A stretch of 64,000 nucleotides of DNA, from NCBI GenBank assembly GCA_944385625.1, contig CALWXZ010000001.1, positions 28,130 through 92,129 of the forward strand, read 5' to 3'. The DNA comes from an uncultured Flavonifractor sp. (GTDB taxonomy: Bacteria; Bacillota; Clostridia; Oscillospirales; Oscillospiraceae). This document shows positions 30,023 to 46,078 of this stretch, piece by piece (the stretch's first letter is position 1; each line of letters opens with the position of its first letter). Position numbers and translations under genes: made by a program. The notes under the pieces were generated by a model, which saw only the letters and a list, made by a program, of their open reading frames with translations, searched no databases and was not told where the DNA came from.

Positions 30023-30813
30023 CAGGCCCCTCCCCCTCTCTCAGCCCGTGGGAAACGGGAACCGGCCACCTGGTCGCACAGCTGCTCAAAGTCCCGGGCG
30101 GGCTTGGAGGCGGGGGCGTAGTCCACCACGCTCAGGCCGTGGGCCGGCGCCTCCGCCACCGAAACGCTGCCCCGGATCTTGGCCTCGAACACCACCGTGT
30201 CCAGCTGTTGGGCGATCTGGGAGGCCAGCTCCAGCACCTCCCGGTTCAGGTTGAAGCGGCCGTTATAGCGGTTGAGCAGGATGCCCAGCACCTGCAGGCG
30301 GGAGTTGTAGTACTCCCGCACGCTCTGGATGGTCTCCTTGATCTGGGAGACCCCCAGAAGGCTAAGTACCTCGGGCGCCATGGGGATGATGAGCTTGTCC
30401 ACCGCCACATAGGCGTTGACGGTAAGCAGGTTCAGGGCAGGGGGCGTATCCACAATGATAAAGTCGTAGTTCTCCTCCACCTTGGACAGGGCGGTTTTCA
30501 GCATAAACTCCCGGCCGGGACGGTTGAACTCCAGTTCCGCCCCCGCCAGCAGAATGTTGGCGGGCAGCAGGTCGCAGGTCTCGGTATGGGAAATGGCGGC
30601 CTGCGGCTCCAGCTCTCCCCGGAACACGTCGTAGATGGTGGCGCAGCGCTCAATGTCCAGCCCCAGGCTGAACCCCAGACTGCCCTGGGGGTCCAGATCC
30701 ACTCCCAGCACCCGGGCTCCCCGGTTGTGCAGGCTGGCCAAGAGGGCCGCCGACGTGGTGGTTTTGCCCACGCCGCCCTTCTGATTGGTGACGGCGATCA
30801 TAAACGCGGACAT
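30022..30813 (-). CDS. Orphan ParA/Soj-family ATPase
   Basis: Deviant Walker [32 protein letters not shown]; ATG at 30813 with RBS GGAGG; no parB adjacent. Confidence 0.92.
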
Positions 30814-30895
30814 AAAGGTCCTCCATTTCTGTCCGTCCAGCCCGGTCCTCCACATATTTTCATAAAAAGAATCAGAAAAATTGGGAGGCAAACAC

Positions 30896-30922
30896 TTAAT
30901 CTTTTGCCGCGGCGGACGATAT
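30896..30922 (+). promoter_or_regulatory. Sigma28 promoter of fliD-fliS
   Basis: TTAA-N15-GACGATAT. Confidence 0.7.
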
Positions 30923-30958
30923 ATATTGATGAGAGAATATGCAGATACGTTCCAGGTC

Positions 30959-30987
30959 ATTGTACTCAAAAGATTTTTTCTTGTCAA
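30959..30987 (-). promoter_or_regulatory. SigmaA promoter of parA-comFB
   Basis: TTGACA-N17-TACAAT on the minus strand. Confidence 0.8.
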
Positions 30988-31064
30988 CATGGGGTCCCTG
31001 GAGCACAGAATCAACGTACTTTCCTTCTCTCGCGTTCAACTCTGATAGAAAGGGAGTGTGAATT

Positions 31065-33695
31065 ATGGCATCCATCAGCAGTCTGTCCAGTTCCAGTTCC
31101 TCATCCAGCGTCTACGGAAACCGCACCTATAACATCGTATCCGGTCTGGCCAGCGGTATGGACACCGAAGAGATGATCTCCGGCCTGGTGCAGAGCTATC
31201 AGCAGAAGATCCAATCCCTTCAGAATAAAAACACCAAGCTTCAATGGCAGCAGGAAGCCTTCCAAGGCATCTCCGACAAATTGGTGGAGTTTGACCGGAA
31301 TTACTCCTCCTATGTCTATTCCGATACCAACCTGGCCAGTTCCAGCTTCTTCAATAACGCGGTGAAAACCACCACCAACGGCACCTACGCTAACCTGGTC
31401 ACCGCCTCGGGCAAAACCAGCAGCACGGTGGTGGTGAACGCGGTGCGCCAGTTGGCCACCGCCGCCCGGTACAGCGTCTCCGCCGACGATCTTAACGGCA
31501 ACGTATCCACCGTGAATGGGCAAACAACCATTACCGGCGGCGCTTTGAAGGTCAACAGCGATGACACTGTGACCGTGAGCAATCTGGCCGGTTCCATGAC
31601 CTTCTCCTACGGCGGCAAGACGGTCTCCATCGATCTGGGCCAGCGGGAGCTTTTTACCGACGAAAACGGCACGTTCAGCGCCGATGCTCTTCAAAAAGCC
31701 ATTACGGAAAAGCTCAGCGAGCAGCAGATTTCCACCAGCGGCGGCTCCGGCACTGCTGACCAGTACATCGGCGTGAGCGTCAAGGACGATGGCAATGGCA
31801 ATCTCTCCATCTCTGTCTCCGACAAGAAGAACGCGGGCAACACAGTGAGCATCAGCGGCGCCACCGGCGACCTGGGCAAGCTGGTTGGCGATCTGGGCGA
31901 TGGAAAAAGCGAAGTTTCCCTGGGTGCTTCCAAGGATCTGACCAGCAATATCTCTCTGGGCGACTTTGTCTCCGGTCAGACGCTTACCGTCACCATGGAC
32001 GGCAAGAGCAAGACCATCAGCCTGGACAAGTTCAAGGACATCTCCAAGGTATCCGATTTTGAGGCCACCCTCAATGAGGAGCTGAAGAATGCCTTTGGCA
32101 CTGTGACCGGCACCAGCACCCAGAAGGTCACCGCCACTTTCGGCAAAAACGGTATTTCCTTTGTTATGGATCCGTCCGTAGAAAATTCCACCTTCTCGGT
32201 AACCGCCTCTACCTCCGATATAGGGGATGTGCTGGGTATCGGCTCCGGCTTGACCAATTACCTGGACACCAACAAAACACTGGGAGAACTGAATCTGGGT
32301 ACTGGCTTTAGCTGGGACAACGGCGCCATTGTAATGGGCAGCGGTGATAAGGCCATCGAGCAGAAAAACGACGCTGGGGAAGTCATCGGCTATGTGGATG
32401 CCGACGGCAACTCTGTCAATGCAAACAACGAACGCCTTGGCAAGGACGGCCAGGTCCTGCGCAGCTACGACCTGATTATCAATGATGTGAAGATCGGCTC
32501 CTACACCCGGGACACCGAGATGAACACCATCATCAACGCCATCAACACCAACACCGAGGCCGGCGTAAACGTCAGCTACTCCAAGACCTCCGGTCAGTTT
32601 GTCTTTACCGCCAAGGATACCGGCTCGGCCGGCCGGGTGGAGATCAAAACCGGCGGCCTGGGGGCTGTTCTCTTCGGCGCCACCGTGCAGGAGGCAGAAG
32701 ATCCCTCCAACACAAAGCCTGCCACCACCACCAAGAGCGGCTCTTACGAGGCTGGTACAGACGCACTCCTCAACGTCACCATCAACGGCCAGAACATGGA
32801 GTTGGTACGCTCCTCCAACACGGTAGACCTGGACGGTATGTCCGTCACCGTCAGCGGCACCTTTAATGAGAAGGCCACCCTGAGTCAGGACGGAAAGACT
32901 ATGGTGAACAAGGAACAGGGGGCCGATGGCACGGAGAAAGAAGTTGCGGTTGACGCTGTTTCCTTCACCAGCAAGACCGACGCGGATACCATTGTGGACG
33001 CGGTGAAGAAGATGGTGGACGACTTCAACGCGCTTATCAAAGAGGTCAAGAGCGCTTATTCCGATATGCCGCTGGAGAAGAGCGACGGCTCCCGGTATGA
33101 GCCTCTCTCCGACGAGGACATGGAGGATATGAGCGAGTCGGCCATTGAAAACTATGAGGAGAAGGCCAAGACCGGCATTCTCTTCATGGACAGCGACCTG
33201 TCCTCTCTGTATAACGACCTGCGCAGCGCCATCTCCGTCAGCGGATCGGACGGCGCTACTCTGCGTTCGATCGGTATCAGCACCTCCTACTCCGACGGCC
33301 TGACCACCCTCACCTTTGATGAGAAAGCCTTCCGGGAGGCCCTGGAAAGCGACCCGGACAAGGTGCAGGAGGCCTTCACCAAGTCCAAGGAGAACGGCGC
33401 CGCCACCGACGGCCTGATGGCCACCCTCAAGTCCATCACCGACCGCTACGCCTCCACCACCGGCGATACCAAGGGTATTCTCATCGAGAAGGCGGGCTCC
33501 AAATACTCCCCCACCGCCGCGCTGGATAACACCATCCTCAACCAGATGAACGATGTGGAGGAGGAGATCTCCAAGTGGCAGGACAAGATGTCCGATCAGG
33601 TGGACTACTACACCAACAAATTCACTCAGCTGGAAATGCTGATTAACCAGATGAACTCCCAGAGTTCGGCGCTGTCCGGCCTTCTGGGCGGCTAA
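31065..33695 (+). CDS. fliD: Flagellar cap protein FliD (876 aa)
   Basis: N-terminal SGLASGMDT...LQWQQEA, SSNTVDLDGMS, FVDDFN-like MVDDFNALI, C-terminal YYTNKFTQLEMLINQMNSQ. Confidence 0.93.
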   Translation: MASISSLSSSSSSSSVYGNRTYNIVSGLASGMDTEEMISGLVQSYQQKIQSLQNKNTKLQWQQEAFQGISDKLVEFDRNYSSYVYSDTNLASSSFFNNAVKTTTNGTYANLVTASGKTSSTVVVNAVRQLATAARYSVSADDLNGNVSTVNGQTTITGGALKVNSDDTVTVSNLAGSMTFSYGGKTVSIDLGQRELFTDENGTFSADALQKAITEKLSEQQISTSGGSGTADQYIGVSVKDDGNGNLSISVSDKKNAGNTVSISGATGDLGKLVGDLGDGKSEVSLGASKDLTSNISLGDFVSGQTLTVTMDGKSKTISLDKFKDISKVSDFEATLNEELKNAFGTVTGTSTQKVTATFGKNGISFVMDPSVENSTFSVTASTSDIGDVLGIGSGLTNYLDTNKTLGELNLGTGFSWDNGAIVMGSGDKAIEQKNDAGEVIGYVDADGNSVNANNERLGKDGQVLRSYDLIINDVKIGSYTRDTEMNTIINAINTNTEAGVNVSYSKTSGQFVFTAKDTGSAGRVEIKTGGLGAVLFGATVQEAEDPSNTKPATTTKSGSYEAGTDALLNVTINGQNMELVRSSNTVDLDGMSVTVSGTFNEKATLSQDGKTMVNKEQGADGTEKEVAVDAVSFTSKTDADTIVDAVKKMVDDFNALIKEVKSAYSDMPLEKSDGSRYEPLSDEDMEDMSESAIENYEEKAKTGILFMDSDLSSLYNDLRSAISVSGSDGATLRSIGISTSYSDGLTTLTFDEKAFREALESDPDKVQEAFTKSKENGAATDGLMATLKSITDRYASTTGDTKGILIEKAGSKYSPTAALDNTILNQMNDVEEEISKWQDKMSDQVDYYTNKFTQLEMLINQMNSQSSALSGLLGG

Positions 33696-34099
33696 TGACT
33701 GGAACGGAAAGGAACGCGCCTTTTATGGATATGCGAGGTTACCAGCACTATCGGGAGGACTCCATCAATACCATGACCCCCGGCGAGCTGCTGCTGCTGG
33801 TCTACGACGAGCTGGTCAAGCGGCTGACCCAGGCGGAGCTGGCACTGGAAAAAGAGGACTACCCCGCCTTTGAGTCGGCGGTAGACCACGCCGTCAAGAT
33901 CGTCCACTACCTGGACGACACGCTGGACCGCCAGTACGAGATCGGCCAGCAGCTCGCCCGCCTGTATGAGTACTTCTGCTACGAGCTCAGCCGGGTAAAG
34001 AGCGGTCGAAACAGGACCGAACTGGAGCGGGTCAAGCGCATGGCCAGTGAGCTGCGGGAGAGCTTTCGCACCGCGGACAAAAACACCGCCACCCGATAG
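33695..34099 (+). CDS. fliS: Flagellin chaperone FliS
   Basis: YREDSINTMTPGELLLLVYD, LARLYEY; true start may be a downstream ATG. Confidence 0.92.
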   Translation: MTGTERNAPFMDMRGYQHYREDSINTMTPGELLLLVYDELVKRLTQAELALEKEDYPAFESAVDHAVKIVHYLDDTLDRQYEIGQQLARLYEYFCYELSRVKSGRNRTELERVKRMASELRESFRTADKNTATR

Positions 34100-34108
34100 G
34101 AGCCGGCT

Positions 34109-34519
34109 ATGTTAAGCGATCAGGACTTTACCTGCGCCATTGCGATTCAGCGCAAGATGTACACATCCCTCAATGAGGTGGCTGATCTGACGGACGAGCT
34201 GTCTCAGGCTGTGAGCCGGCAAGATCAGGTCTCGGTACGGATGTTTCTCTCCATGCGTCAGGAGGAAATTCAACGTCTTACCAGCTACCAGGCCATGCTG
34301 CACCGGCAGTGCAGACAGCTTCTTCCAGAGGACGCCAGGCTGCTTACCCAGCTCAACTCCGGCCGCTTTCAGGGAACCGCTCCCTCCCCCAGCGCCCAGG
34401 CTCTGCTCCAGCAGGCCCAGCGCAACCGCTCCCTGCTGGAGCGCGTGCGCCGGGCGGATGAGGCCGTCAGCAGCCGCCTTGGCGGTCCAAACTCCTTTTA
34501 CAACAAGAAGAGGAAATAG
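34109..34519 (+). CDS. Helical FliT/FlgN-like chaperone (putative)
   Basis: Small all-helical protein in the fliD-fliS-fliT position; no diagnostic motif. Confidence 0.45.
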   Translation: MLSDQDFTCAIAIQRKMYTSLNEVADLTDELSQAVSRQDQVSVRMFLSMRQEEIQRLTSYQAMLHRQCRQLLPEDARLLTQLNSGRFQGTAPSPSAQALLQQAQRNRSLLERVRRADEAVSSRLGGPNSFYNKKRK

Positions 34520-34527
34520 CGCGCCCG

Positions 34528-34565
34528 AAAAAAGCCCCCTGCCGACCTGATGATCGGCAGGGGGC
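34528..34565. terminator. Terminator between the fliD operon and the C39 peptidase gene
   Basis: 12-bp stem GCCCCCTGCCGA/TCGGCAGGGGGC with A6 (U6 on the minus strand). Confidence 0.75.
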
Positions 34566-34575
34566 ACTCCCCGTT

Positions 34576-35469
34576 TCATCCTCCGCCCAGGGCGGTAAAG
34601 CACCAAAGAGGCGCGCCGTCCGTACGGCTGGCGGACAGTTCATCCAAAATGAGCTGCGGGTCCCAGAGCGCCAGGCTGCGCGCCCGGCTGTTGGAGTCGG
34701 CCACCAGCACTTGTCCGGTGAGGGTGGCGCCCCGGAGCACGATAAAATGCCCGCCGGTGGTAAAGTGTCCCGGCCCCATCAGGGCCACCATCAGCTGGCC
34801 CGAGGCCAGGCGCTGACACAGCTCTCCTTCGGAGATTTCCCCGCAGGACTGGGCGGTCAGGCCGAAGTAGCGGGCCATCCCCTCCACCAGAGACAGGTAG
34901 GAGCCGCTGCCGGCGGCACAGTACCCCTGTTGGGCGGCAAGCCGGGCCATTTCGGCCGGGTCCACCACCTGGCCGCTCAGGGTGGAGACCACCATGGACA
35001 TGGCGGTGGGGCCGCAGCCAAAACCCTTGATGAGATCGGACCCGAAGGCCGCGCTGGCCCAGGGCTCCTCGCTCTGGTTAAAGTAGACCAGCTCCACCAC
35101 CCCCCCGGTGAGTACCTCCTGCCCCTGGCGGGAGGCAAACTGAGTGATCTCCGGGTCCTGGATCAGGGACTCCGGGTCTTGCTCCGGCTCCTGGATCTCC
35201 TGGCTGACAGGGGGGGCGTCTCCCTGTTGCTGTTGGTCCTGCTGGTAGGCCGCTACGGCGCCTTGCAGCTTTTGAAGCAGCGCCTGCCCCTGCCCCCACA
35301 CTCCGTGGGCCATCTGGACCACCGGCTGGGTAATGCGCTGGAACAGGGCGGGCTCCATGACCCGGCACACCGCCAGCTCCACGCCCGCCACACACACCAG
35401 GGCCAGCAGGATGATCCCCAGGACGCGCGCATATTTCTTTGGCTTTTTTCCCCCACTCAATCTTCTCAT
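34576..35469 (-). CDS. Membrane-anchored C39-like cysteine peptidase
   Basis: N-terminal TM helix; GCGPTAMSMV (Cys), GGHFIVL (His), ADSNS (Asp). Confidence 0.8.
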   Translation of the reverse strand: MRRLSGGKKPKKYARVLGIILLALVCVAGVELAVCRVMEPALFQRITQPVVQMAHGVWGQGQALLQKLQGAVAAYQQDQQQQGDAPPVSQEIQEPEQDPESLIQDPEITQFASRQGQEVLTGGVVELVYFNQSEEPWASAAFGSDLIKGFGCGPTAMSMVVSTLSGQVVDPAEMARLAAQQGYCAAGSGSYLSLVEGMARYFGLTAQSCGEISEGELCQRLASGQLMVALMGPGHFTTGGHFIVLRGATLTGQVLVADSNSRARSLALWDPQLILDELSASRTDGAPLWCFTALGGG

Positions 35470-35514
35470 GCCACCTTTTGTGTTGTGAATCTGATTATAG
35501 CAAATTTTTTTATG

Positions 35515-35526
35515 CTTGTATACAAG
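35515..35526. promoter_or_regulatory. Perfect palindrome CTTGTATACAAG, possible repressor operator
   Basis: 12-bp palindrome between divergent genes, overlapping the ftsE-like RBS and the -35 region of the C39 gene promoter (TG-C-TATAAT at 35494-35502, minus strand). Confidence 0.45.
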
Positions 35527-35539
35527 GAGCAATCGACCT

Positions 35540-36250
35540 ATGGCACAGATTTGTTTGGAAGGAGCCGGTAAGGACTACACCCAGGCCGCCGAGCAGACGC
35601 TGGTACACGCGATCCGCTCCGTGGACCTGACCATTGAGCGGGGTGAATTTGTCTTTATCACCGGCAGCAGCGGTGCGGGAAAAAGCACCTTGCTGCAGCT
35701 CATCACCTATGAGACCCGGCCCACCCGGGGCGCGGTCTATCTGGACGGCGTGGATGTCAACCGCCTGTCTCAGCGTCAGCGCCAGCACCATCGCCTGCGC
35801 TTTGGATATGTCCCCCAGCTTCCCTCTTTGATTCGGAAACGGACCATTCAGGAGAATCTGACCACGGTGGCCCTTCTGGGCCGCGGCCGGGTCCATATGG
35901 CCCCCGAAAAACGGGTGCAGAAGGCGCTGAATATGGTGGGAATGGGCGACGCCGCCAACTGCTATCCCGTGGAGCTGTCCATGGGACAGTGCCGCCGGGT
36001 GGAGCTGGCCCGGGCCATCATCAATAACCCGGACATTCTGGTTCTGGATGAGCTCACCGCCAACCTGGACGAGGACACCGCCTGGGATATGTTCCTGTTT
36101 TTGTCGGAACTGAATCACCATGGGGTCACCGTCATCATGGCTACCCACGCGAAGAAATTTGTCAACCTCATGCGCCGCCGGGTTATCACTCTGGTGGACG
36201 GAGCCATTTTTGGCGACGTCCAGAAGGGCCGCTACGGCGATGTGATGTAA
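35540..36250 (+). CDS. FtsE-like ABC ATPase without a permease partner
   Basis: GEFVFITGSSGAGKST, signature LSMGQ, LVLDELTANLD, MATH, MRRRVITL, and a GRY-like tail typical of clostridial FtsE. Confidence 0.8.
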   Translation: MAQICLEGAGKDYTQAAEQTLVHAIRSVDLTIERGEFVFITGSSGAGKSTLLQLITYETRPTRGAVYLDGVDVNRLSQRQRQHHRLRFGYVPQLPSLIRKRTIQENLTTVALLGRGRVHMAPEKRVQKALNMVGMGDAANCYPVELSMGQCRRVELARAIINNPDILVLDELTANLDEDTAWDMFLFLSELNHHGVTVIMATHAKKFVNLMRRRVITLVDGAIFGDVQKGRYGDVM

Positions 36251-36337
36251 CCCTTTGATTGGGAAATTCCGGCTTACTTTTTTGAGTAAACCGCATCTAT
36301 ATATATTTCTGCGATTCTTTTTTCAGGAGGACGTCAT

Positions 36338-38095
36338 ATGAAAAACAAAAAAGTTGGAGTAAAAATCCTATTTTCTTTTGTCATCACACTGCTGCTGGCT
36401 CTGGCGATGATGTGTGTGGCCATCTGGAGCATCTTCAGCATCCGCAGTCAGTATACCCATGTTCTCTCCACCCAGATCGCCATCGCCGATGCGGTCCAGA
36501 ACAGCGAAAAAGAGATGAACTCGGTAGCCCGTCAGCTCCGTGACATGGCCATGTTTGGGTTTGACGAATCCACGGAAAGCGAGATCAAAAACTCCCTGTC
36601 TGTGATCGAAGAATCCCTGAACACGCTTCAGACCCTTCAAACCGGCGACACCAGCCTTTCTGATGATTATATCCAGAAAATCCAGGATTGGCAGTCCTCC
36701 TTTTCTGCCATGGATTCCGCTCTGAGGGCCGGCAACACCGCCCAGGTCCAGCAGCTGATTAAAACCGAGTGTACCCCCAAGCTCACCGCGGCCGTTCAGT
36801 CCGGCGACGCGCTGTCTGATGCGGTGACCGCCGACGGCACCAACGCCGTCAATCAGGTGGTAGCCAACAGCACCCGTCAGGTAATCATCCTGGTGGTGCT
36901 TATCCTCATCACCGCCGCTTTGGGCATCGCGCTCAACCTGTATTCCATCCGCTCCATTGTCACCCCTCTGCGCAAGGCGGAGGAGTCCGTGGTGGCTTTC
37001 AGCCAGGGCAATCTGTCCTACAACCTGGACTACGAGGCCAACGACGAGATCGGCGGCATCTGCAACGCCGTGCGCACCTCCCAGCAGGTGCTGCACAATG
37101 CCATTGAGGACATCGTTTCCGTGACCAAGAGTCTGGCCGACGGCGACCTGTCCTGCACCGTCACTCAGGAGTACCCCGGCGAACTGGCCCCCATCAAGGA
37201 AAATATTGAGTACCTGCTGGAGCAGCTTAACGACACCATGAGCAGCATCCTCCAGGCGGCCGACCAGGTGGCCGCCGGCGCCGACCAGGTCTCCACCGGT
37301 TCCCAGGCTCTGGCTCAGGGCTCCACCGAGCAGGCCAGCGCCGTGGAGGAGTTGTCCGCCACCATCAACGACCTGGAGCACTCCGCCCAGGAGAACCGCA
37401 AGACCGCCCAGACCGCCAAGGAGAAGGCCGACCAGGCCGCCGACCAGGTGCGGGTGAGCAACGAGCGTATGCAGGAGATGCGCAAGGCCATGAGCGATAT
37501 CCTGGCCGGGCAGAAGGATATCGGCAAGATCATCGAGACCATTGAAAACATCGCCTTCCAGACCAATATTCTGGCCCTGAACGCCGCCGTGGAGGCCGCC
37601 CGGGCGGGCAGCGCCGGCAAGGGCTTTGCCGTGGTGGCCGACGAGGTGCGCAACCTGGCCTCCAAGTCCGACCACGCCGCCAAGCAGACCAAGAAGCTTA
37701 TAGAGTCCTCTCTGGCCGCGGTTGAGCACGGCGACGCGCTGGTCGAGGACGTGGACACAGATATGCAGAAGACCGTGGAGTGCGCCGGCGCCGCCATCGA
37801 GTATATGGATAAGCTGGCCGAAAACACCATCACCGAGGCCGAGGCCATTGAGCAGCTGACCACCGGCGTGGATCAGATCTCCAGCGTGGTGCAGACCAAC
37901 TCCGCCACCAGCGAGGAGTCCGCCGCCGCCAGCGAGGAGCTGTCCTCTCAGGCTGTCATGATGAAGCAGATGGTCGAGCGGTTCCATCTGAAAGGGGGTT
38001 CCGGCTTCTCCTACGAGCCCAACCACACCGATTACTCCGCTTCCGCCTCTGCCGTGAGCGCTTCGGCGGATGAAAACCGCTTCAGCAAGTATTAA
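36338..38095 (+). CDS. Methyl-accepting chemotaxis protein (4HB-type sensor, HAMP), C-terminal pentapeptide RFSKY
   Basis: Two TM helices, [33 protein letters not shown]. Confidence 0.95.
37553..37693 (+). repeat. 141-bp direct repeat, copy 1 (MCP signalling tip)
   Basis: 5 mismatches versus 42510-42650 by manual alignment. Confidence 0.85.
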
Positions 38096-38140
38096 TTCCG
38101 GGCCCAGCGCCCGGCTTTCAGGAAAGGAGTTGGCTGTCTG

Positions 38141-40051
38141 ATGTCGGATACCACGCGGCCCCCGGCAGTACAAAGCCAGGACCTGATCTATGCACTGGAC
38201 ATTGGAACCCGGAGCGTCATCGGGCTGCTGGCCAAAACGGTGGAGGACAAGGTTCAGGTTCTGGCCATGGAAAAGCTGCTCCATACCCACCGGGCGATGA
38301 TGGACGGGCAGATTGAGGACATCGCCCAGGTGGCCGCCGCGGTACGCACCGTCACCGACCGCCTGGAACAGGACGCCGGCTGCAAGCTGGAACGGGCCTG
38401 TGTCGCCGCCGCCGGGCGGGCTCTGCGCACGGAGCAGGGCCACGCCCTGCGGGAGCTGTCCGCCCCCGAACCGGTGACCGAGGCCCTGATCGCCCAGCTG
38501 GAGGCCGCCGCGGTGGCCGAGGCCGAACAGGCCATCCGGGGGGAGGAGGCCGACACCGGCCAGCAGCAGCTGCTGGTGGGCTATACCGCCATCCAGTACT
38601 CCCTGGACGGCTATCCCCTGGCCACCCTTTTGGGCCACACCGGCCGTCGGCTGGAGGCCCAGGTTGTGGCCACCTTCCTGCCCAGCGGCGTGGTGGACAG
38701 CCTGTACGCGGTGATGCGCCGGGCAGGTTTGGAGGTGGCCAGTCTCACCCTGGAGCCCATCGCCGCCCTGAACGCCGCCATTCCCGCCGACCTGCGCCTC
38801 TTAAACCTGTGTCTGGTGGACATTGGGGCCGGCACATCGGACATCGCCGTGTGCCGGGAGGGCACTGTGGTGGGCTACACCATGGCCACGGTGGCCGGCG
38901 ACGAGATCACCGAGGCTCTGATGAAGGAATACCTGGTGGACTACGCCACCGCAGAGCGCATGAAGTTCCAGCTGGGCCAATCGGACACCCTGGCCTTCAC
39001 CGACATTCTGGGCCAGGAGCAGACCTGCACCTGCCAGCAGGCGCAAACTGCGCTGGAGCCCGCCGCCCAGCTGCTGGCCAAGGAGATCGCCCAGCGGGTG
39101 GTCAACCTGAACGGCGCCGCTCCCTCCGCCCTGTTTCTGGCCGGCGGCGGCAGCAAGCTGGCCGGCCTGCGGGAAAAGGTAGCCGACGCCCTCGGCATGG
39201 ACCCCAAGCGGGTATCGGTGGCGGGCGGCCACTTCAAGGCCTCCGCCTTTTCCGACGTTCTCTCCCTGGAGGACCCGGAGTACACCACCCCCCTGGGCAT
39301 CGCCATCTCGGCGGGCCTGGGACTCATTAACGACAGCTGCCAGGTCACTCTCAACGGCGCCCGGGCCAAGCTCTTCCGCAGCGGGGACCTGTCCGCCATG
39401 GATCTGCTGATGATGAACGGGTACACCTACTTTGACCTGCTGGGCAAAACAGGAAAACCCCTGATCCTTCAGGTGGACGGGCGGAGAACCATCTACCACG
39501 GCCAGCCCGCCCAGCCCGCCCAGCTGCGCATCAACGGCCAGGAGGCCCAGCCCTCCGCCCTGATTCACGCCGGCGACGTGGTGGACTTTGTCCCAGCTCA
39601 GGCGGGGGCAGACTGCCGTCTTACCGCCGCCCAGCTGGCCAAGCGCCTGGGCGCATCCGCCATTCTGATGAACGGCGTCCGCCCCGACCCGGACCAGGAG
39701 GTACCCTCCGGCGCCTTTGTGGTGGTGGCCCAGGGGTCCGACCTCCCCGCCGCCCCGACGCCAGCCGCACCGATTCCGGCGGCCCCGGTGGCCCCGGCTT
39801 CTCCGGTCCAACCCCAGCGGGCCGCCGCCACGTCCGTCTTTCTCAATGGTCAGCCCATCGCCCTGCCCGCCAAGGCGGACGGTTCCCCCTACTATGTGAT
39901 GGATCTGCTGGAGCGCACCGGGATCGATTTTCAGCATCTCCAGCGACCGGTGGTCCTGCGCCTTAACGGCGCCGAGTGCCTGTTCCAGCAGGCGCTCCAG
40001 GCGGGAGATCAGGTGAGCATCGGCTATGAGGACGAGGTGAACAATCCGTGA
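38141..40051 (+). CDS. FtsA-like actin-fold ATPase with C-terminal beta-grasp (ThiS/ubiquitin-like) repeats
   Basis: ALDIGTRSV, LTLEPIAAL, VDIGAGTSD, LAGGGSKL; C-terminal repeats V.LNG...L...LL...G...L.ING...L.AGD.V. Confidence 0.8.
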   Translation: MSDTTRPPAVQSQDLIYALDIGTRSVIGLLAKTVEDKVQVLAMEKLLHTHRAMMDGQIEDIAQVAAAVRTVTDRLEQDAGCKLERACVAAAGRALRTEQGHALRELSAPEPVTEALIAQLEAAAVAEAEQAIRGEEADTGQQQLLVGYTAIQYSLDGYPLATLLGHTGRRLEAQVVATFLPSGVVDSLYAVMRRAGLEVASLTLEPIAALNAAIPADLRLLNLCLVDIGAGTSDIAVCREGTVVGYTMATVAGDEITEALMKEYLVDYATAERMKFQLGQSDTLAFTDILGQEQTCTCQQAQTALEPAAQLLAKEIAQRVVNLNGAAPSALFLAGGGSKLAGLREKVADALGMDPKRVSVAGGHFKASAFSDVLSLEDPEYTTPLGIAISAGLGLINDSCQVTLNGARAKLFRSGDLSAMDLLMMNGYTYFDLLGKTGKPLILQVDGRRTIYHGQPAQPAQLRINGQEAQPSALIHAGDVVDFVPAQAGADCRLTAAQLAKRLGASAILMNGVRPDPDQEVPSGAFVVVAQGSDLPAAPTPAAPIPAAPVAPASPVQPQRAAATSVFLNGQPIALPAKADGSPYYVMDLLERTGIDFQHLQRPVVLRLNGAECLFQQALQAGDQVSIGYEDEVNNP

Positions 40052-40758
40052 AGCAACAGATTAAGGCCGCGGCGCTCCTTGTGGCGGTGCTGCTGCTTAC
40101 TTCCTGCGGCGGCTCCAAGGAGCCTCCCCAGGCGTATACCCTGGGGGAGGACAGCCTCCCCTCCCTTACCGCGCTGGTCACTCTGGAGAACGTGCAGTTT
40201 GAAGAGACCACCGGTGAGGACGACGCGGTCACCTATGTCTATTCCGGCCTCTCCAGCGGCGGCGAGACCGCTCAGGCGTATGCCAACGCTCTGGAGTCGG
40301 ATTACGAGTGTACCATCGCCACCGACTCCGAGACCAGCGGCGCGCCTGATTTTGCAGCCTCCTCCGGCCAGGCCCTGGCCGCTCAGCCGCTGGAGGACAG
40401 CGACCAGCTGTTTTTGCTGACCATCCAGTGGGAGGATACCTCCTGCTCCGTCACCCCCTCCCTGGCTGATGCGGACGCCATGCCCCAGCAGGAGGACCAG
40501 TCCGTTACCCTGGATCAGGCTGTAGGTGTGTTGGAAAATATGTCCCCCTCGGCGCTGGGCCTGCCTGGAAGCTCCATGGACGAGTACCTGGTGTACCCCC
40601 AGGAGGGCACTGTCTTTTTGGACGACCAGCCCTGCCTGCTGCTGAACGTCTACTCCGCCTCCACGCACCAGTTTCAAAACAGCTACCTGCTCACCGTTCC
40701 CGCGCTGGAAGTGTATAAGCTGGACCGTGTAACGGGAGAGGCCGCCCCTTTAGCGTGA
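40048..40758 (+). CDS. Lipoprotein of unknown function
   Basis: Signal peptide with lipobox LTSC; GTG overlaps the stop of the FtsA-like gene. Confidence 0.75.
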
Positions 40759-40848
40759 GGCGGACAGGCGTTGATTTCCCACGCAGTTCTTTTCCCGCGT
40801 TTCAATTTTTAGACCTATCCCGTCCGGTTTCCTCTTCGCGACAGGAAC

Positions 40849-40889
40849 AAGCGGCTGCAGCCATTCATTTTGCAGCCGCTTTCTTTTTT
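40849..40889 (+). terminator. Terminator after the lipoprotein gene
   Basis: AAGCGGCTGCA/TGCAGCCGCTT stem followed by a T tract. Confidence 0.7.
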
Positions 40890-40901
40890 CACATTTCCCC
40901 T

Positions 40902-40929
40902 TTAACTTTTCGACATTTATTGTCGATAA
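40902..40929 (+). promoter_or_regulatory. Sigma28 promoter of the second MCP
   Basis: TTAA-N16-GTCGATAA. Confidence 0.72.
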
Positions 40930-40985
40930 GCATTATGAGCTCTACTATAACTTTCCACAGGCAATGGGGGAGGAGATCTGTCATC

Positions 40986-42980
40986 ATGAAAAGCATTCGT
41001 CAAAAGCTTCTGATCTGCTTTTTGGCCCTAGCCGGCATTGCCGCGCTGGTGTGCGGCGGAGTGGGAATCTTCGCCAGCTACTCCAGCAGCCAAAGCATTC
41101 TGAAGCAAACTATGGCCGCTGCCGCCGATGAAACGGCCCAGCGTGTCACCTACCAGCTGCGCTCCTATGAGAACGCCGTTGAAGCCCTGGGCATGGTTCC
41201 CAACCTCAGCGATCCCACGGTTTCTGTGGCGGACAAGCAGTCCCTTCTGAATTCCTGGGTGTCCCACTACGGCATGGCCCGGGGCAATGTGCTGTCCACC
41301 AACGGCGTGAGCCTGTTTGACGGCAACAACTACTCCGACCGGGAGTACTTCCAGGAAGCCATCCAGGGCAACACCTGGATCTCCACGCCTACAATCAGCA
41401 AGATCACCGGGGAGCTGTCCATCATGGTGGCCGCTCCGCTGTGGCAGAACGGCATTCAGGGCAGCCAGATCGTGGGCGTGGTCTACTTCGTCCCCGAGGA
41501 GACCTTCCTCAACGACATCATGTCCGCCATTAAGGTCAGCGAAAACGGCGGCGCGTATATGCTGGACAAGGACGGCAACACCATCGCCGACACCACCATG
41601 GACACCATTTGCAACCAGAACATCGAGCAGGAGGCCCAGAGCGATTCCAGCCTGGAGGCCCTGGCTTCCATGCACACCCAGATGCGTCAGGGTGAGAGCG
41701 GTTTTGGCTCCTACCGCTCCGGCGGCGTGTCCAAGTATCTGGCCTACGCCCCCGTCTCCGGCACCGACGGCTGGAGCCTGGGCGTTACCGCTCCTGTCTC
41801 CGACTTTATGGGCAGCACCTACCGCAATATTATGATTATCGCGGTGCTGGTGATTGTGGTGGTGGTCCTGGCCGTGCTGATCTCCATCCGGATCGCCAAC
41901 GGCCTGGGCAAGCCCATCCGGGAGTGTGCCCACCGTCTGCAGCTGCTGCAGGAGGGCGACCTCACCTCTCCCGTGCCGGAGTTCAACCGCAAGGATGAGA
42001 TTGGCCTGCTCACCGACGCCACCAACCAAATCGTCCACGTCCTCCAGGGCATCATCGAGGACATCGGCTATCTGCTGGGAGAGATCGCCCGGGGCAACCT
42101 GAATGTCCGCTCCAAAAACCACGCGCTCTATGTAGGCGACATGAGCGCGGTGCTCACTACCCTCCAGGAGTTGGAGCAGGAGCTGAGCGACACCATGTCC
42201 CAGATCAATTCCGCCGCCGAGCAAGTCTCCACCGGCGCAGAGCAGGTCTCTTCCGGCGCCCAGGCTCTGGCTCAGGGCGCCACCGAGCAGGCCAGCTCCG
42301 TCCAGGAACTGTCCGCCACCATCAATGACATCAACACGACCGCCAGCGACAACACCAAGGCGGCCAAGCAGGCTCAGGAGAAAGCCAACCAGGCGGGGAC
42401 CCAGGTGGCGGCCTGCAACGACAAGATGGGCGAACTGAAGCAGGCCATGTCCGACATCTTCCAGGGCCACCAGGAGATCAGCCAGATCATTGCGGCCATC
42501 GAGAATATTGCCTTCCAGACCAATATTCTGGCCCTGAATGCCGCCGTGGAGGCCGCCCGGGCCGGCAGCGCCGGCAAGGGCTTTGCCGTGGTGGCCGACG
42601 AAGTGCGCAGCCTGGCCTCCAAGTCCGACCAGGCCGCCAAGCAGACCAAGGAAATGATCGAGCACTCCATGAATAACGTGGAGCGGGGCAACAGCCTCAC
42701 CGACGAGGTGAGCCAGGCTCTGGATGAAACCGTCTCCTTCACCCAGGAGGCTGTGTCCCTCATGAACCAGGTGGCCGAGAATATCGTTACCGAGACCGAC
42801 TCCATCCACCAGGTCTCCGAGGGTACCGACCAGATCTCCAGCGTGGTGCAGACCAACTCCGCCACGGCCGAGGAATCCGCCGCCGCCAGCGAGGAGCTGT
42901 CCGGCCAGTCCCAGCTGCTCAAGGAGCTGGTGGCCCGGTTCACCCTGCGCACCGACGACGCCGGCGCCTCTCTGGGCTAA
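40986..42980 (+). CDS. Methyl-accepting chemotaxis protein with dCache-type sensor
   Basis: [34 protein letters not shown] and MCP signalling motifs; ATG at 40986. Confidence 0.95.
42510..42650 (+). repeat. 141-bp direct repeat, copy 2 (MCP signalling tip)
   Basis: See copy 1 at 37553-37693. Confidence 0.85.
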
Positions 42981-42984
42981 GGTT

Positions 42985-43035
42985 TAAAAAAGCAGCGGCA
43001 GAAACCACCGTCGTGTGGCTTCTGCCGCTGTTTTT
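42985..43035. terminator. Bidirectional terminator between MCP2 and hemerythrin
   Basis: A6-CAGCGGCAGAA...TTCTGCCGCTG-T5. Confidence 0.8.
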
Positions 43036-43042
43036 ATGGTCT

Positions 43043-43450
43043 TTATTTACCACCCTGTTCCTTGATGTAGCGGGCCAGGCGCTTGTCCTCGGTGCGGATG
43101 TGGGAGACCAGCACCCCGATCACCTGGTTGAGATCGCCCAGCGCCTTGATGCTGGGGCCGTCAATTAACAGCCGCTGGGACTTGTCCGCCAGCTGGCGGC
43201 GGTAGCCGTCATGGAAGGTCTTGTGGGCCTGATAACCGGGGTATTTGTTCTTCACCTGCAGGTTCTCCTCGTCCCCGAAGTGCTTGACCACATAGTCGCT
43301 TAAAAACTTCACCGTCTTCTGAATCTGATCCCGCCCCTTGCCCTGGGAGCAGGCGTCCATCAGATCGTTGACCGCGGCAAACAGCTGGCGGTGCTCCGAG
43401 TCGATCAGGGCATTTCCGGTCACAAGATCCGCTGTTACTTCATAGCGCAT
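43043..43450 (-). CDS. Single-domain bacterial hemerythrin
   Basis: IDSEHRQL, HFGDEE, HKTFH, HIRTED supply the H/H/E/H/H/H/D di-iron ligands. Confidence 0.92.
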   Translation of the reverse strand: MRYEVTADLVTGNALIDSEHRQLFAAVNDLMDACSQGKGRDQIQKTVKFLSDYVVKHFGDEENLQVKNKYPGYQAHKTFHDGYRRQLADKSQRLLIDGPSIKALGDLNQVIGVLVSHIRTEDKRLARYIKEQGGK

Positions 43451-43533
43451 GGGATAACGCTCCTTTCTTTTCTGCGAAGAACTGCTGTCCTTCGTTTGGT
43501 TTCTAATCCGGAGAAATTTTCTCTCCTTTCTTT

Positions 43534-43560
43534 ATATCGTCCAAACTGGAAAAAACATAA
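43534..43560 (-). promoter_or_regulatory. Sigma28 promoter of hemerythrin
   Basis: TTAT-N15-GACGATAT on the minus strand. Confidence 0.65.
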
Positions 43561-43611
43561 GGAAGTATAAAATTTCTTTATGGTGTTTCCCTGGATTTTT
43601 CCACCCGGCCC

Positions 43612-43638
43612 TTATTTTTCGGCCATATGGGCCGATAT
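43612..43638 (+). promoter_or_regulatory. Sigma28 promoter of flgM-flgN-flgK-flgL
   Basis: TTAT-N15-GCCGATAT. Confidence 0.75.
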
Positions 43639-43713
43639 ATAAAGTGAAAGACATTTTCGCGCCGGGCCCTCGCGGCTGAACTTTGCAAAGGAACGTGAGA
43701 AGGAGGACTTCAT

Positions 43714-44016
43714 ATGCTACGGATCTATCCCGGCGGGAGCAGCCCCGTCAGCGGCGCTTCCCTTCACAACCGAAAATCCGACCTCTCCACCCCTGTTTCC
43801 GCAGAGCAGCGGTACGATCAGATCCAGTTCTCTTCTCACCTGGATGAGACCGCACGGCGCGTGAAGGAGACCGTGGGACGGCTATCCCAGGAGATCCGCA
43901 CCCAGGTGACCACCAAGGATGTGGAGCGGCTGCGCCAGCAGGTGGTCAGCGGGGAGTACCAGCCCTCCCCCCGGGAGATCGCCGCCCGGATGCTGCTGCT
44001 GAGGGAGGACGATTGA
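43714..44016 (+). CDS. flgM: Anti-sigma28 factor FlgM
   Basis: C-terminal VERLRQQVVSGEYQPSPREIAARML; position ahead of flgN. Confidence 0.8.
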   Translation: MLRIYPGGSSPVSGASLHNRKSDLSTPVSAEQRYDQIQFSSHLDETARRVKETVGRLSQEIRTQVTTKDVERLRQQVVSGEYQPSPREIAARMLLLREDD

Positions 44017-44019
44017 TTC

Positions 44020-44457
44020 ATGGATATGCAGGCGTACTTTTCCTTCCTGTCGCAGCTGCGTCAGGCTCTGGATTCCCTGACCGCTCTGGAGCAGGAGAAG
44101 CTCCAGGCCGTCCAGGCAGGCAACCTGGAGGCTCTGGATGCGTGCATGAAGCGGGAGCAGGTGGCCACCCTGGACCTGCGGGGCCGGGAACAAAAGCGCG
44201 TCCAATTGCTCAGACAGTTGGGCCTGGAGCAGGTCTCCCTGCGGGATCTGCCCAGTCACTGTTCCCCCCAGGACCGGGGGCAGGCGGCACAGCTGAGTGA
44301 GCAGGTCCTGCGCAGCTACCAGGTGCTTGCCAGCGCCCAGCAGGCGGCCCGCACCCTGATGGAGTCCAATCTGCGCCACATCCAGCAGGAATTGGACCGG
44401 CGGCAGGCCCAGGAGGCCCCCGCCCCCAAGAAATCGCAGACCGACTTCCGAGTTTGA
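44020..44457 (+). CDS. flgN: Chaperone FlgN
   Basis: Helical, EQEKLQAV...LEQKR-like pattern, between flgM and flgK. Confidence 0.78.
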   Translation: MDMQAYFSFLSQLRQALDSLTALEQEKLQAVQAGNLEALDACMKREQVATLDLRGREQKRVQLLRQLGLEQVSLRDLPSHCSPQDRGQAAQLSEQVLRSYQVLASAQQAARTLMESNLRHIQQELDRRQAQEAPAPKKSQTDFRV

Positions 44458-44470
44458 GAGGAGCACAGCA

Positions 44471-46078
44471 ATGGGTACTTTTGGTTCGTTTACGACCGTC
44501 CGTCTGGGCATCTATTCCGCCCAGAAGGGACTGGATGTGACCGGCAATAATATTACGAATATCAACACCGAGGGCTACACCCGCCAACGGCTCAATCAGG
44601 TCAGCCTGATTCCCTCAGCCGTTGACCGCTATTCCTCCAGCTACAACGCCCGCATCGGTCAGGGCTCCGTGGTGGCCGGGATCACCCAGCTGCGGGACCC
44701 CGGGCTGGATATCCTGTACCGGCGGTCCAACGCCGACGTGGGCTCCGCCAACGCCAAGCTGGACGGTCTCAACTCCCTGGCCGACATTCTGGACGAGGTG
44801 GGCAAGGGGGACCTGGAGCAGGATGACGGCGTCATCCTCAGCCAGCTCAATGATATGCGGGACCTCATCAGCCAGGCCATTGCCAGCGGCGGCTCCAGCA
44901 CCTACAACGACCTGATCCGTTCCTCCGCCGACGCTCTGGTCACCCACTTCAACTCCTACGCCAACAAGCTTACCCAGCTGCATGGCACCTATGAGACCAA
45001 GCTGGACCAGCAGGTCACCGAGGTCAACGATATCCTCACCCAGATCCGGGATCTGAACCTGTCCATCCGGGACGCCGACCTGCGTGGGGACCCCGGTCTG
45101 GAGCTGCGGGACCAGCGCAATCTGCTGCTGGATAATCTCAGCGAATATATGGACATCGACGTGACCTACTCCATGGAGGACGTGGGGGCCAACACCCAGG
45201 TGGAGAAGCTCACCGTCACCCTGGCCAACAGCACCGGCCAGACGGGCAATATGCTGGTGGATGGTCTGTATGCCACCCAGCTGAGTTCCGGCACCGAGGC
45301 GGACGGATATGCTGTCACGCTGTCAGCCCTAAAGAACGACAAGGGTGAACTTCATCCCGACACCGGTAACAAAGATGTGCAGTTAGCGGAGGGCGATCTG
45401 TACGGCTCCATCCAGTCCATCCGGGATATTCTCACCGGCGAGGGGGAATTTGCCTCTCAAGATGATATCAATCATGACAAGGACGCCTCCACCACCCGGG
45501 GCATCCCCTACTATCAAAAGGCCCTGGATTCCCTGGCCCATGAGTTTGCCGCAAAGATGAATGAACTCAACAACACCGGCCTGACGGGGGGCGGCAACCT
45601 GTTCAGCATGGGCAGCGATACCAATGACGCCAGTAACATTACCGCCAGCAACATTTCTGTGTCCATGGATTGGGCCAACCAGAAGGTTACCGTTCAGACC
45701 ACCGCCGAAATCAACGCCCCCAGCGGCGATACCTCCCGCCTGGCGGAGTTTCTTGCCCTCTTTGACAGCGAGATCAGCTTTGATCCCACGAATGTGCAGG
45801 GTGACGCCGCCGGCGACCCCTTCAACGGCACCTTTGAGGATATGCTGCTGAAGATCCAGTCCACCCTGGGCGAGGACCAGATGAGCACCGACTCCATCCT
45901 GAACAACTATACCGTAACGCTGGGCGATTTGTACGTGGACCGGCAGGGCGTCACCGGCGTGGACCTGAACGACGAGGCCGCCAACCTGATGACCTATCAG
46001 AAGGCCTATACCGCCGCCTGCCGGCTGATGACCACGCTGAACGAGGCGCTGGACTCTCTGATTAACGGGACCCTCTAA
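44471..46078 (+). CDS. flgK: Hook-associated protein FlgK
   Basis: GNNITNINTEGYTRQR, LRDQRNLLLD, GVDLNDEAANLMTYQKAY. Confidence 0.95.
   Translation: MGTFGSFTTVRLGIYSAQKGLDVTGNNITNINTEGYTRQRLNQVSLIPSAVDRYSSSYNARIGQGSVVAGITQLRDPGLDILYRRSNADVGSANAKLDGLNSLADILDEVGKGDLEQDDGVILSQLNDMRDLISQAIASGGSSTYNDLIRSSADALVTHFNSYANKLTQLHGTYETKLDQQVTEVNDILTQIRDLNLSIRDADLRGDPGLELRDQRNLLLDNLSEYMDIDVTYSMEDVGANTQVEKLTVTLANSTGQTGNMLVDGLYATQLSSGTEADGYAVTLSALKNDKGELHPDTGNKDVQLAEGDLYGSIQSIRDILTGEGEFASQDDINHDKDASTTRGIPYYQKALDSLAHEFAAKMNELNNTGLTGGGNLFSMGSDTNDASNITASNISVSMDWANQKVTVQTTAEINAPSGDTSRLAEFLALFDSEISFDPTNVQGDAAGDPFNGTFEDMLLKIQSTLGEDQMSTDSILNNYTVTLGDLYVDRQGVTGVDLNDEAANLMTYQKAYTAACRLMTTLNEALDSLINGTL

Follow-up and report, generated by a model that had tools for sequence, protein, structure and literature searches.

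The systems described so far that come closest to the locus considered here belong to cell division and to the bacterial flagellum. In E. coli, FtsEX acts via the actin-like division protein FtsA and controls wall hydrolases (PMC7343993). In H. pylori, a homologue of PilM is encoded together with the PilN/PilO cage of the flagellar motor, which sets a precedent for a PilM protein tied to the motor (PMC10823254). Here we analyse an operon in a stretch of 64,000 nucleotides (nt) from an uncultured Flavonifractor sp. (contig CALWXZ010000001.1); this whole stretch is referred to as the window. Four genes, closely packed on the + strand at 35540-40758 and located as a preliminary description had placed them, encode an ABC ATPase, a chemoreceptor (methyl-accepting chemotaxis protein, MCP), an FtsA-like protein and a lipoprotein (Table 1). 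The late flagellar genes on either side are fliD-fliS (31065-34099) and flgM-flgN-flgK (from about 43700). With a probability of roughly 55%, we read this operon as a lineage-specific accessory module of the chemotaxis/motility apparatus, whose core is an FtsA/PilM-type actin ATPase in which three β-grasp domains replace the membrane-targeting helix. The FtsA-like protein belongs to a large, Clostridia-wide family, on which our search of the literature found no publication. In the genomes sampled, its members are inherited almost exclusively alongside chemosensory genes of the CheA type and an organelle of motility, which is the flagellum or, in a few lineages, the type IV pilus.

The N-terminal part of the FtsA-like protein is recognisably of the FtsA type. 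The NCBIfam FtsA model TIGR01174 covers residues 16-387 (positions 2-368 of 371 in the model) with 110.8 bits, below the cut-off of 175.85, and the PilM model TIGR01175 aligns with residues 170-389 only, at 68.9 bits against a cut-off of 133. Orthologues in four genomes (G087, G102, G008 and G094) score 80-115 bits to the FtsA model and thus likewise stay below its cut-off. When an AlphaFold2 model of the whole protein (mean pLDDT, the predicted local distance difference test score, 76.7) was compared with the PDB by Foldseek, the best matches were FtsA (1.5e-20) and then PilM (2.9e-14), EutJ, MreB and DnaK. The actin fold with the 1C subdomain and the ATP-binding motifs of FtsA is therefore present, and the earlier statement that the protein has all FtsA nucleotide motifs and a 1C-like insert agrees with three intact motifs (DIGTRS, DIGAGTSD and LAGGGSKL) and with FtsA structures as the top Foldseek matches. 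The C-terminal amphipathic membrane-targeting helix is lacking; residues 395-636 consist of β-grasp units and a Pro/Ala-rich linker.

For this tail, the AlphaFold2 model of residues 395-636 reaches a pLDDT of 88.9 and displays three units and the Pro/Ala-rich linker. As a whole, the tail is matched by Foldseek to the tandem-ubiquitin protein 9cd2 (1.1e-4), linear polyubiquitin and ISG15, while the single units are matched to ThiS (3cwi, target-normalised TM-score 0.61), MoaD-like proteins, TGS, SUMO, Urm1 and SAMP1. Units 1 and 3 recognise each other in BLASTP (E = 5e-4). Furthermore, among 21 diverse members of the family, the Pfam models ThiS and TGS each match 14 and Ub-Mut7C matches 11, the best E-value (ThiS) being 8.4e-14. 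Structure prediction and Foldseek, which had been proposed as a check, hence display the β-grasp fold and rule out a tail of another kind. The claim of three such units without a terminal Gly-Gly also stands: the protein ends in ...YEDEVNNP, none of the three units ends in GG, and all are internal to one polypeptide. Because they are fused to an ATPase, the tail domains more probably serve for binding than for modification or the carrying of sulfur.

A search with the tail among 1.8 billion representative proteins retrieved about 500 clusters (50% identity). Almost every full-length hit is a protein of 600-1050 amino acids (aa) with a tail that starts at residue 385-435. The long family is thus built of an FtsA-like core of ~390-430 aa followed by at least two β-grasp units, an architecture that the 636-aa protein shares, and relatives found elsewhere in the class, in other families, show 31-44% identity along the matched length. 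The distribution of this family was compared with that of motility genes at three levels. In the Oscillospiraceae sample, 17 of 151 genomes carry the FtsA-like protein, and FliD is present in 15 of these 17 carriers (the two exceptions are incomplete genomes) versus 17 of 134 non-carriers. In the class sample, all 80 carriers among 399 genomes have flagellar genes, namely FliD in 76 and FlhA plus CheA in the other four, and FliD occurs in 56 of the 319 non-carriers. In the phylum sample, which was searched with a profile of tail unit 1, 206 of 401 genomes are positive. Within a subset of 80 genomes from this sample, FlhA was found in 39 and CheA in 41 of 42 carriers, the sole carrier without CheA being a 350-contig assembly; FlhA and CheA were each found in 24 of the 38 non-carriers. 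Not one of the 12 genomes of the subset that lack both FlhA and CheA carries the FtsA-like gene.

Three carriers of the phylum subset lack FlhA, and all three have CheA and PilT. Three relatives from two of the same families likewise have CheA and PilT (FlhA was scored in the first three carriers only), and the six together come from three families (f90, f108 and f143). A strictly flagellar association, which we had considered, was dropped on finding these carriers without flagella but with CheA and PilT. Since such carriers still have CheA and PilT, and since no genome without both FlhA and CheA carries the gene, the family follows chemosensory and motility genes generally, and not the flagellum as a structure. 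The co-occurrence with flagella and chemotaxis that the preliminary description had asked about is therefore borne out (80 of 80 class carriers with flagellar genes, 41 of 42 subset carriers with CheA). Nor are orthologues spread broadly through non-motile taxa outside motility loci: among the genomes sampled they are almost never found in those without chemotaxis/motility genes, even though most other lineages do have them outside motility loci.

We also compared the distribution with that of FlhF. FlhF above its cut-off was not found in three module-bearing Oscillospiraceae (G000, G094 and G087, one of them a complete genome), and the seven genomes of the family sample that have FlhF are all without the FtsA-like gene. 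Replacement of FlhF by the FtsA-like protein as a general rule was nevertheless rejected, because Ruminiclostridium and another family have both proteins; furthermore, 11 flagellated Oscillospiraceae have neither.

In Oscillospiraceae, the operon forms part of a conserved block. The window proteins were compared by tblastn with 18 loci of the family sample. In 14 of them the gene order is ParA-ComFB on the minus strand, then FliD-FliS-orf136, in some a C39 peptidase gene on the minus strand, then ATPase, in some an MCP, FtsA-like protein and lipoprotein; in three the FtsA-like gene stands alone. A scan of one genome per species with full-length alignment gave at least 596 relatives, the best 80 of which were examined for gene order. 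Among the matches listed, the closest relative is that of Lawsonibacter sp. LCP25S3_E2 (90% identity), with identical gene order. An ATPase orthologue lies directly upstream in 36 of the best 80 named loci; 33 of these 36 have the lipoprotein gene, and 28 have an MCP orthologue between the ATPase and FtsA-like genes, as do seven of the 14 module loci of the family sample. By title, nearly all 36 block loci are of the Oscillospiraceae type (Lawsonibacter, Pseudoflavonifractor, Allofournierella, Intestinimonas, Flavonifractor and Oscillibacter), whereas in Lachnospiraceae and other taxa the FtsA-like gene stands alone. The FtsA-like proteins of the block form one clade (support 99/96), which is sister to the lone Oscillospiraceae copies. 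Gene order thus upholds the proposed link to motility, the block being found beside fliD-fliS across dozens of Oscillospiraceae species. A divergent C39-like peptidase gene lies upstream in about half of the loci. Where no such gene separates the two, the ATPase gene begins ~80-250 nt after orf136 in the same orientation; the block may thus have belonged to the fliD operon at an earlier time.

To characterise the lone copies, we clustered, without bias, all open reading frames (ORFs) within 5 kb of 59 of them. Several recurrent neighbours belong to motility, chemotaxis or cyclic di-GMP (c-di-GMP) signalling: a GGDEF-GAF cyclase directly downstream in 8 loci (median gap 25 nt), a PilZ protein in 7 loci (directly upstream in six of the seven, median gap 16 nt), CheA upstream on the opposite strand in 7, a protein like the C-terminal part of FlhB upstream on the same strand in 7, an MCP downstream in 6, and FliF ~3.7 kb downstream in 4. 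The housekeeping genes nth (11 loci, directly upstream in 10 of the 11) and glgA (7 loci, upstream) recur as well, and flagellum-less carriers have housekeeping neighbours only. No pil genes were found in the recurrent neighbour clusters, and the adjacency to pilN/pilO that would mark a PilM is thus lacking.

The partners of the FtsA-like protein within the operon are of unequal familiarity. The MCP is a regular chemoreceptor, with a transmembrane sensor, 127.7 bits to the MCPsignal domain PF00015 (cut-off 34.6), 47.5 bits to HAMP and a weak match to 4HB_MCP_1. In one Lawsonibacter sp. metagenome-assembled genome (L091), a hemerythrin gene takes the slot between the ATPase and FtsA-like genes that the MCP has in other loci. 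For the ATPase, the start codon is an ATG preceded by the ribosome-binding site AAGGAG, and the orthologues begin at the identical residue. The protein matches Pfam ABC_tran (PF00005) at 1.3e-34 and has a Walker A motif (GSSGAGKST), a Q-loop, a variant signature (LSMGQ), a Walker B motif (LVLDE) and an H-loop (ATH). It is a nucleotide-binding domain only; no permease gene adjoins, and the next gene is that of the MCP. In 11 of 12 orthologues the catalytic motifs (Walker A, Q-loop, Walker B with its Glu, H-loop) are kept, that of locus L048 being degenerate, and the signature reads LS[MILQTA]G[QE] instead of LSGGQ. Only a module-carrying genome yielded an orthologue (59% identity, 256 bits); elsewhere the best match reaches at most 158 bits. 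The label "FtsE-like" given to this protein says too much: its best NCBIfam model is indeed FtsE (TIGR02673), yet the 187.2 bits lie below the cut-off of 264.85, the genome has seven further ABC ATPases with better scores (192-212 bits, none reaching the cut-off), and a search of the genome for the FtsX extracellular domain (FtsX_ECD) gave no match. The resemblance is generic, and the protein is an ATPase of the FtsE/LolD/MacB type but not FtsE.

The lipoprotein gene is, as proposed, translationally coupled to the FtsA-like gene, its GTG start overlapping the TGA stop by 4 nt (GTGA). Its product begins with a typical lipoprotein signal peptide (...LLLTSC-GG), which fits the lipobox [LVI][ASTVI][GAS]C and predicts lipidation, and it has no match among Pfam families or PDB sequences. 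A lipobox is present in 12 of 15 orthologues; in the other three (L047, L048 and L054) its place is taken by a Lys-rich stretch and, after it, a transmembrane helix, which lie at the N-terminus in L047 and L054 but internally in L048. The Lys-rich basic tail of these three proteins is reminiscent of the FtsA-binding cytoplasmic tail of FtsN.

A mechanism for the module can be sketched by analogy. Like FtsA and PilM, the FtsA-like protein would bind ATP and sit under the membrane as a dimer or short polymer. The β-grasp domains would dock in place of a lipid anchor and would hold chemosensory or c-di-GMP signalling proteins at the motility machinery. On this view the Oscillospiraceae lineage has acquired three additions, of which the ABC ATPase may act as a regulatory partner, the MCP as a dedicated receptor and the lipoprotein as the partner outside the membrane. 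We infer from the same analogy, and by way of speculation, that such an assembly might be the scaffold that had been envisaged as linking chemoreceptor arrays or motors to the envelope. A bolder proposal is that these proteins make up a third functional class among the FtsA/PilM-type actins, one devoted to chemotaxis and motility, whose ATP-dependent filaments or rings would place or organise chemoreceptor arrays, flagella or pili via ubiquitin-like domains and which, in the sampled Oscillospiraceae, whose carriers gave no FlhF, would form with the ABC ATPase and ParA-ComFB an alternative system for flagellar placement and number; we hold this to be a tentative idea that is considerably more likely wrong than right.

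Several observations weigh against an accessory role in chemotaxis and motility. Related genomes are not independent, and as genomes are reduced, chemotaxis, flagella and the FtsA-like gene could be lost together without any functional link. The gene is absent from 37% of the CheA-positive genomes and is hence dispensable for chemotaxis. In most lineages it lies among housekeeping genes (nth, glgA, the atp operon, an H+-pyrophosphatase gene). Within the operon itself, the ATPase has no membrane partner and the lipoprotein no cytoplasmic part for the FtsA-like protein to hold. Finally, a sigma-28 motif precedes each of fliD, flgM, the hemerythrin gene and the downstream MCP, but none was seen 5' of the ATPase gene.

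The alternative that survives best is a structural accessory of the flagellar motor, that is, a cytoplasmic ring or cage component docking on the C-ring, the stators or the export gate, like the PilMNO cage of Campylobacterota. The position of the gene within the late flagellar locus of Oscillospiraceae, the FliF and FlhB-like genes adjoining it elsewhere, the flagellar genes of all 80 class-sample carriers and the H. pylori precedent (PMC10823254) all fit this explanation. It does not readily accommodate the six carriers with CheA and PilT from three families, the three tested among them having no FlhA, or the many flagellated genomes that lack the protein (56 in the class sample, 17 of 32 in the family sample), and the operon encodes no PilN- or PilO-like partner. 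We consider a motor accessory possible but doubtful.

Somewhat less probable still is a housekeeping role unrelated to motility, for example as a chaperone or adaptor of the Hsp70/ASKHA type, the gene merely following large, free-living, motile genomes. Related genomes share many traits, 206 of 401 phylum-sample genomes have the protein, and in many lineages its neighbours are housekeeping genes, all of which would fit such a role. It would leave unexplained why genes of motility, chemotaxis and c-di-GMP signalling recur as direct, same-strand neighbours in several families, why the gene is fixed in the fliD-fliS block across Oscillospiraceae, and why FliD is so much more frequent in Oscillospiraceae carriers (15/17) than in non-carriers (17/134).

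An envelope-remodelling unit resembling FtsEX and FtsA appears unlikely, slightly more so than the housekeeping role. In this scheme, the lipoprotein and the neighbouring membrane-anchored C39-type peptidase would be governed by the ATPase together with the FtsA-like protein and would open the thick cell wall so that flagella can be assembled, in the way that E. coli FtsEX works through FtsA on wall hydrolases (PMC7343993). The co-inheritance of the ATPase, the FtsA-like protein and the extracytoplasmic protein, and the C39-like peptidase gene that about every second locus has divergently upstream, are what one would expect of such a unit. However, the operon has no FtsX-type permease and the FtsX extracellular domain was not found in the genome, so that nothing encoded would carry a signal across the membrane. 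In addition, many loci have no C39 gene, the lipoprotein has no match among families of hydrolases or activators, and the wider FtsA-like family occurs without these partners.

The relation to cell division was assessed from the distribution of canonical FtsA. As the preliminary description had noted, no ftsZ or pil genes are nearby: none turned up among the window ORFs annotated at 30000-46000. This genome has no FtsA above the model cut-off, and its sole ftsZ match lies elsewhere, on a contig with only ~320 nt ahead of ftsZ; the gene before ftsZ lies beyond the contig end, and this genome alone therefore cannot settle the point. Canonical FtsA was found in none of the six Oscillospiraceae genomes G000, G094, G008, G087, G102 and G104; two of these are complete, and a 99%-complete genome of the same genus, without flagellar genes and without the FtsA-like protein, has none either. 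In G000, FtsE above the cut-off and the FtsX extracellular domain were likewise not found. Canonical FtsA is thus missing from these Oscillospiraceae genomes whether or not they carry the long FtsA-like protein. In other families of the class, four of five genomes have a 411-431-aa FtsA above the cut-off together with the long protein, and in a maximum-likelihood tree the long FtsA-like proteins lie far from FtsA and MreB. Linkage to ftsZ and the dcw cluster is also lacking, with ftsZ on another contig and most Oscillospiraceae without the long gene. We accordingly rejected identity with the division FtsA, as the protein is carried by only 17 of 151 family genomes, other Clostridia have both proteins, and Oscillospiraceae without it also lack canonical FtsA. 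These data support the view that the actin-fold protein is an FtsA-type paralogue that does not perform FtsA's division job. That the operon holds the organism's real, divergent division pair FtsA and FtsE, merely situated in a flagellar region, is very improbable: the lack of canonical FtsA, FtsE and FtsX above cut-offs and the early end of the ftsZ contig would allow it, but it is at odds with the sparse carriage, with the absence of canonical FtsA from complete and same-genus genomes regardless of carriage, with the coexistence of both proteins in other Clostridia, with the missing membrane-targeting helix and ftsZ linkage, and with seven other ABC ATPases that fit the FtsE model better.

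The limits of the operon were right as first drawn. No significant hairpin relative to shuffled sequence exists in the two intergenic gaps inside it (z = 0.49 and -0.47), and a strong hairpin, an intrinsic terminator, sits ninety bases 3' of the lipoprotein gene, in agreement with the earlier statement that no terminator is evident between 35540 and 40849. The MCP gene downstream, at ~40986-42980, is a separate unit with its real start near 40986. Its own sigma-28-like promoter (TTAA-N16-GTCGATAA, 40902-40929) resembles the motifs of fliD, flgM and the hemerythrin gene, all of which follow the pattern TTAA/TTAT, a spacer of 16-17 nt, then [G][ACT]CGATA[TA]. Upstream of the operon, conserved TGcTATAAT and TTGTAT motifs at 35494-35522 include the palindrome CTTGTATACAAG. 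The suggestion that this palindrome is an operator was abandoned; together with TGCTATAAT it reads, from its sequence, as a putative strong extended -10 sigma-70 promoter on the minus strand, belonging to the divergent C39-like peptidase gene, and the motifs are kept in C39-bearing relatives and absent from loci without a C39 gene. An Rfam scan of the whole window found no RNA family and no c-di-GMP riboswitch.

Table 1. Features of the operon and of its surroundings, in window coordinates.
Feature	Position	Strand	Basis or remarks
Orphan ABC ATPase, FtsE/LolD/MacB type, 236 aa	35540..36250	+	Pfam, NCBIfam, motifs
Chemoreceptor (MCP) within the operon, 585 aa	36338..38095	+	4HB, HAMP and MCPsignal domains; two transmembrane segments
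FtsA-like protein, 636 aa	38141..40051	+	NCBIfam FtsA model, motifs, AlphaFold2/Foldseek
FtsA/PilM-type actin-fold ATPase core, residues 1-394, with 1C-like subdomain	38141..39322	+	Phosphate-1, phosphate-2 and adenosine motifs intact
β-grasp unit 1, residues 402-484	39344..39592	+	Best conserved part of the tail; LNG...LLMMNGY...NG...GD
β-grasp unit 2, residues 487-530, short	39599..39730	+	AlphaFold2 tail model, Foldseek
Pro/Ala-rich linker, residues 531-562	39731..39826	+	Low model confidence; length varies among homologues
β-grasp unit 3, residues 563-629, ThiS-like, without C-terminal GG	39827..40027	+	Tail model, Foldseek
Membrane-anchored extracytoplasmic protein (lipoprotein), 236 aa	40048..40758	+	Lipobox LTSC; two conserved domains without known family
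Intrinsic terminator closing the operon	40849..40889	+	12-bp stem then UUUCUUUUUU; dG -21.6 kcal/mol, z = -5.8
Sigma-28-like promoters of other genes	~30896-30925, 43620-43650 (+), 43530-43560 (-)		5' of fliD, flgM and the hemerythrin gene

The surroundings of the operon offered some further observations. FliD (31065-33695) is unusually long at 876 aa; its frame spans ~770-1165 aa in module genomes, compared with ~510-660 aa in most other flagellated Oscillospiraceae. The orf136 product (34109-34519; 136 aa), which has no Pfam match, is encoded 3' of fliS in every module locus (29-80% identity) and is a candidate for a flagellar chaperone that has escaped recognition, for instance an analogue of FliT. 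Divergently upstream of fliD, the ParA-ComFB pair is present in nearly every module locus; in the window, the ParA-like gene (30022-31014, minus strand) owes its name to the earlier reading and to its conserved order beside the ComFB gene. A 386-aa ORF at 30016-31176 overlaps it, has no Pfam match and was dismissed as spurious. In Intestinimonas timonensis (L005, LR130817.1), the FliS, orf136, C39, ATPase, FtsA-like and lipoprotein genes are present and a transposase lies upstream of fliS in the place of fliD; to judge from this replacement, the module may be outlasting a flagellar locus in decay. Two metagenome-assembled genomes titled 'uncultured Bacteroides sp.' (L074 and L079) have a typical Oscillospiraceae flagellar block, and these bins are probably mislabelled or contaminated.

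How Gram-positive anaerobes, many of them abundant in the gut, place, count and regulate their flagella and chemoreceptor arrays is poorly understood. Gut flagellin shapes host immunity. The present family is large, occurs in about half of the sampled genomes of the phylum and travels with chemotaxis and motility genes, under the database labels "cell division protein FtsA" or "PilM". A minimum consequence is that it should no longer be annotated as a division protein. If it truly is a cytoskeletal organiser of motility, this would be a new job for the bacterial actin family.

Compared with FtsA itself (TIGR01174, PF14450; PDB 7q6i, 4a2b, 1e4f and 3wqu), the protein shares the actin/ASKHA fold, the 1C subdomain and the nucleotide motifs, but it stays below the family cut-off, has three β-grasp domains and no C-terminal amphipathic helix, coexists with true FtsA, has no ftsZ/dcw link and follows chemotaxis and motility, not division, in its distribution. 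With PilM, the cytoplasmic adaptor of a motility machine, it has the core fold in common; here too the cut-off is not reached, no pilN/pilO genes are adjacent and hence no N-terminal PilN peptide is available as partner, and PilM is without a β-grasp tail. Set beside E. coli FtsEX acting on FtsA, the operon likewise joins an FtsE/LolD/MacB-type ATPase to an FtsA-type and an extracytoplasmic protein, and differs in that it lacks an FtsX permease, in that its ATPase is not an FtsE orthologue and in that its context is motility and not the septum. The tail units, finally, have the fold of ThiS, MoaD and ubiquitin-like domains, including those of tandem ubiquitin proteins (PDB 3cwi, 1ryj and 9cd2); in contrast to such modifiers, the tail has no C-terminal Gly-Gly, no E1-like or sulfur-transfer genes lie nearby, and the units are fused to an ATPase.

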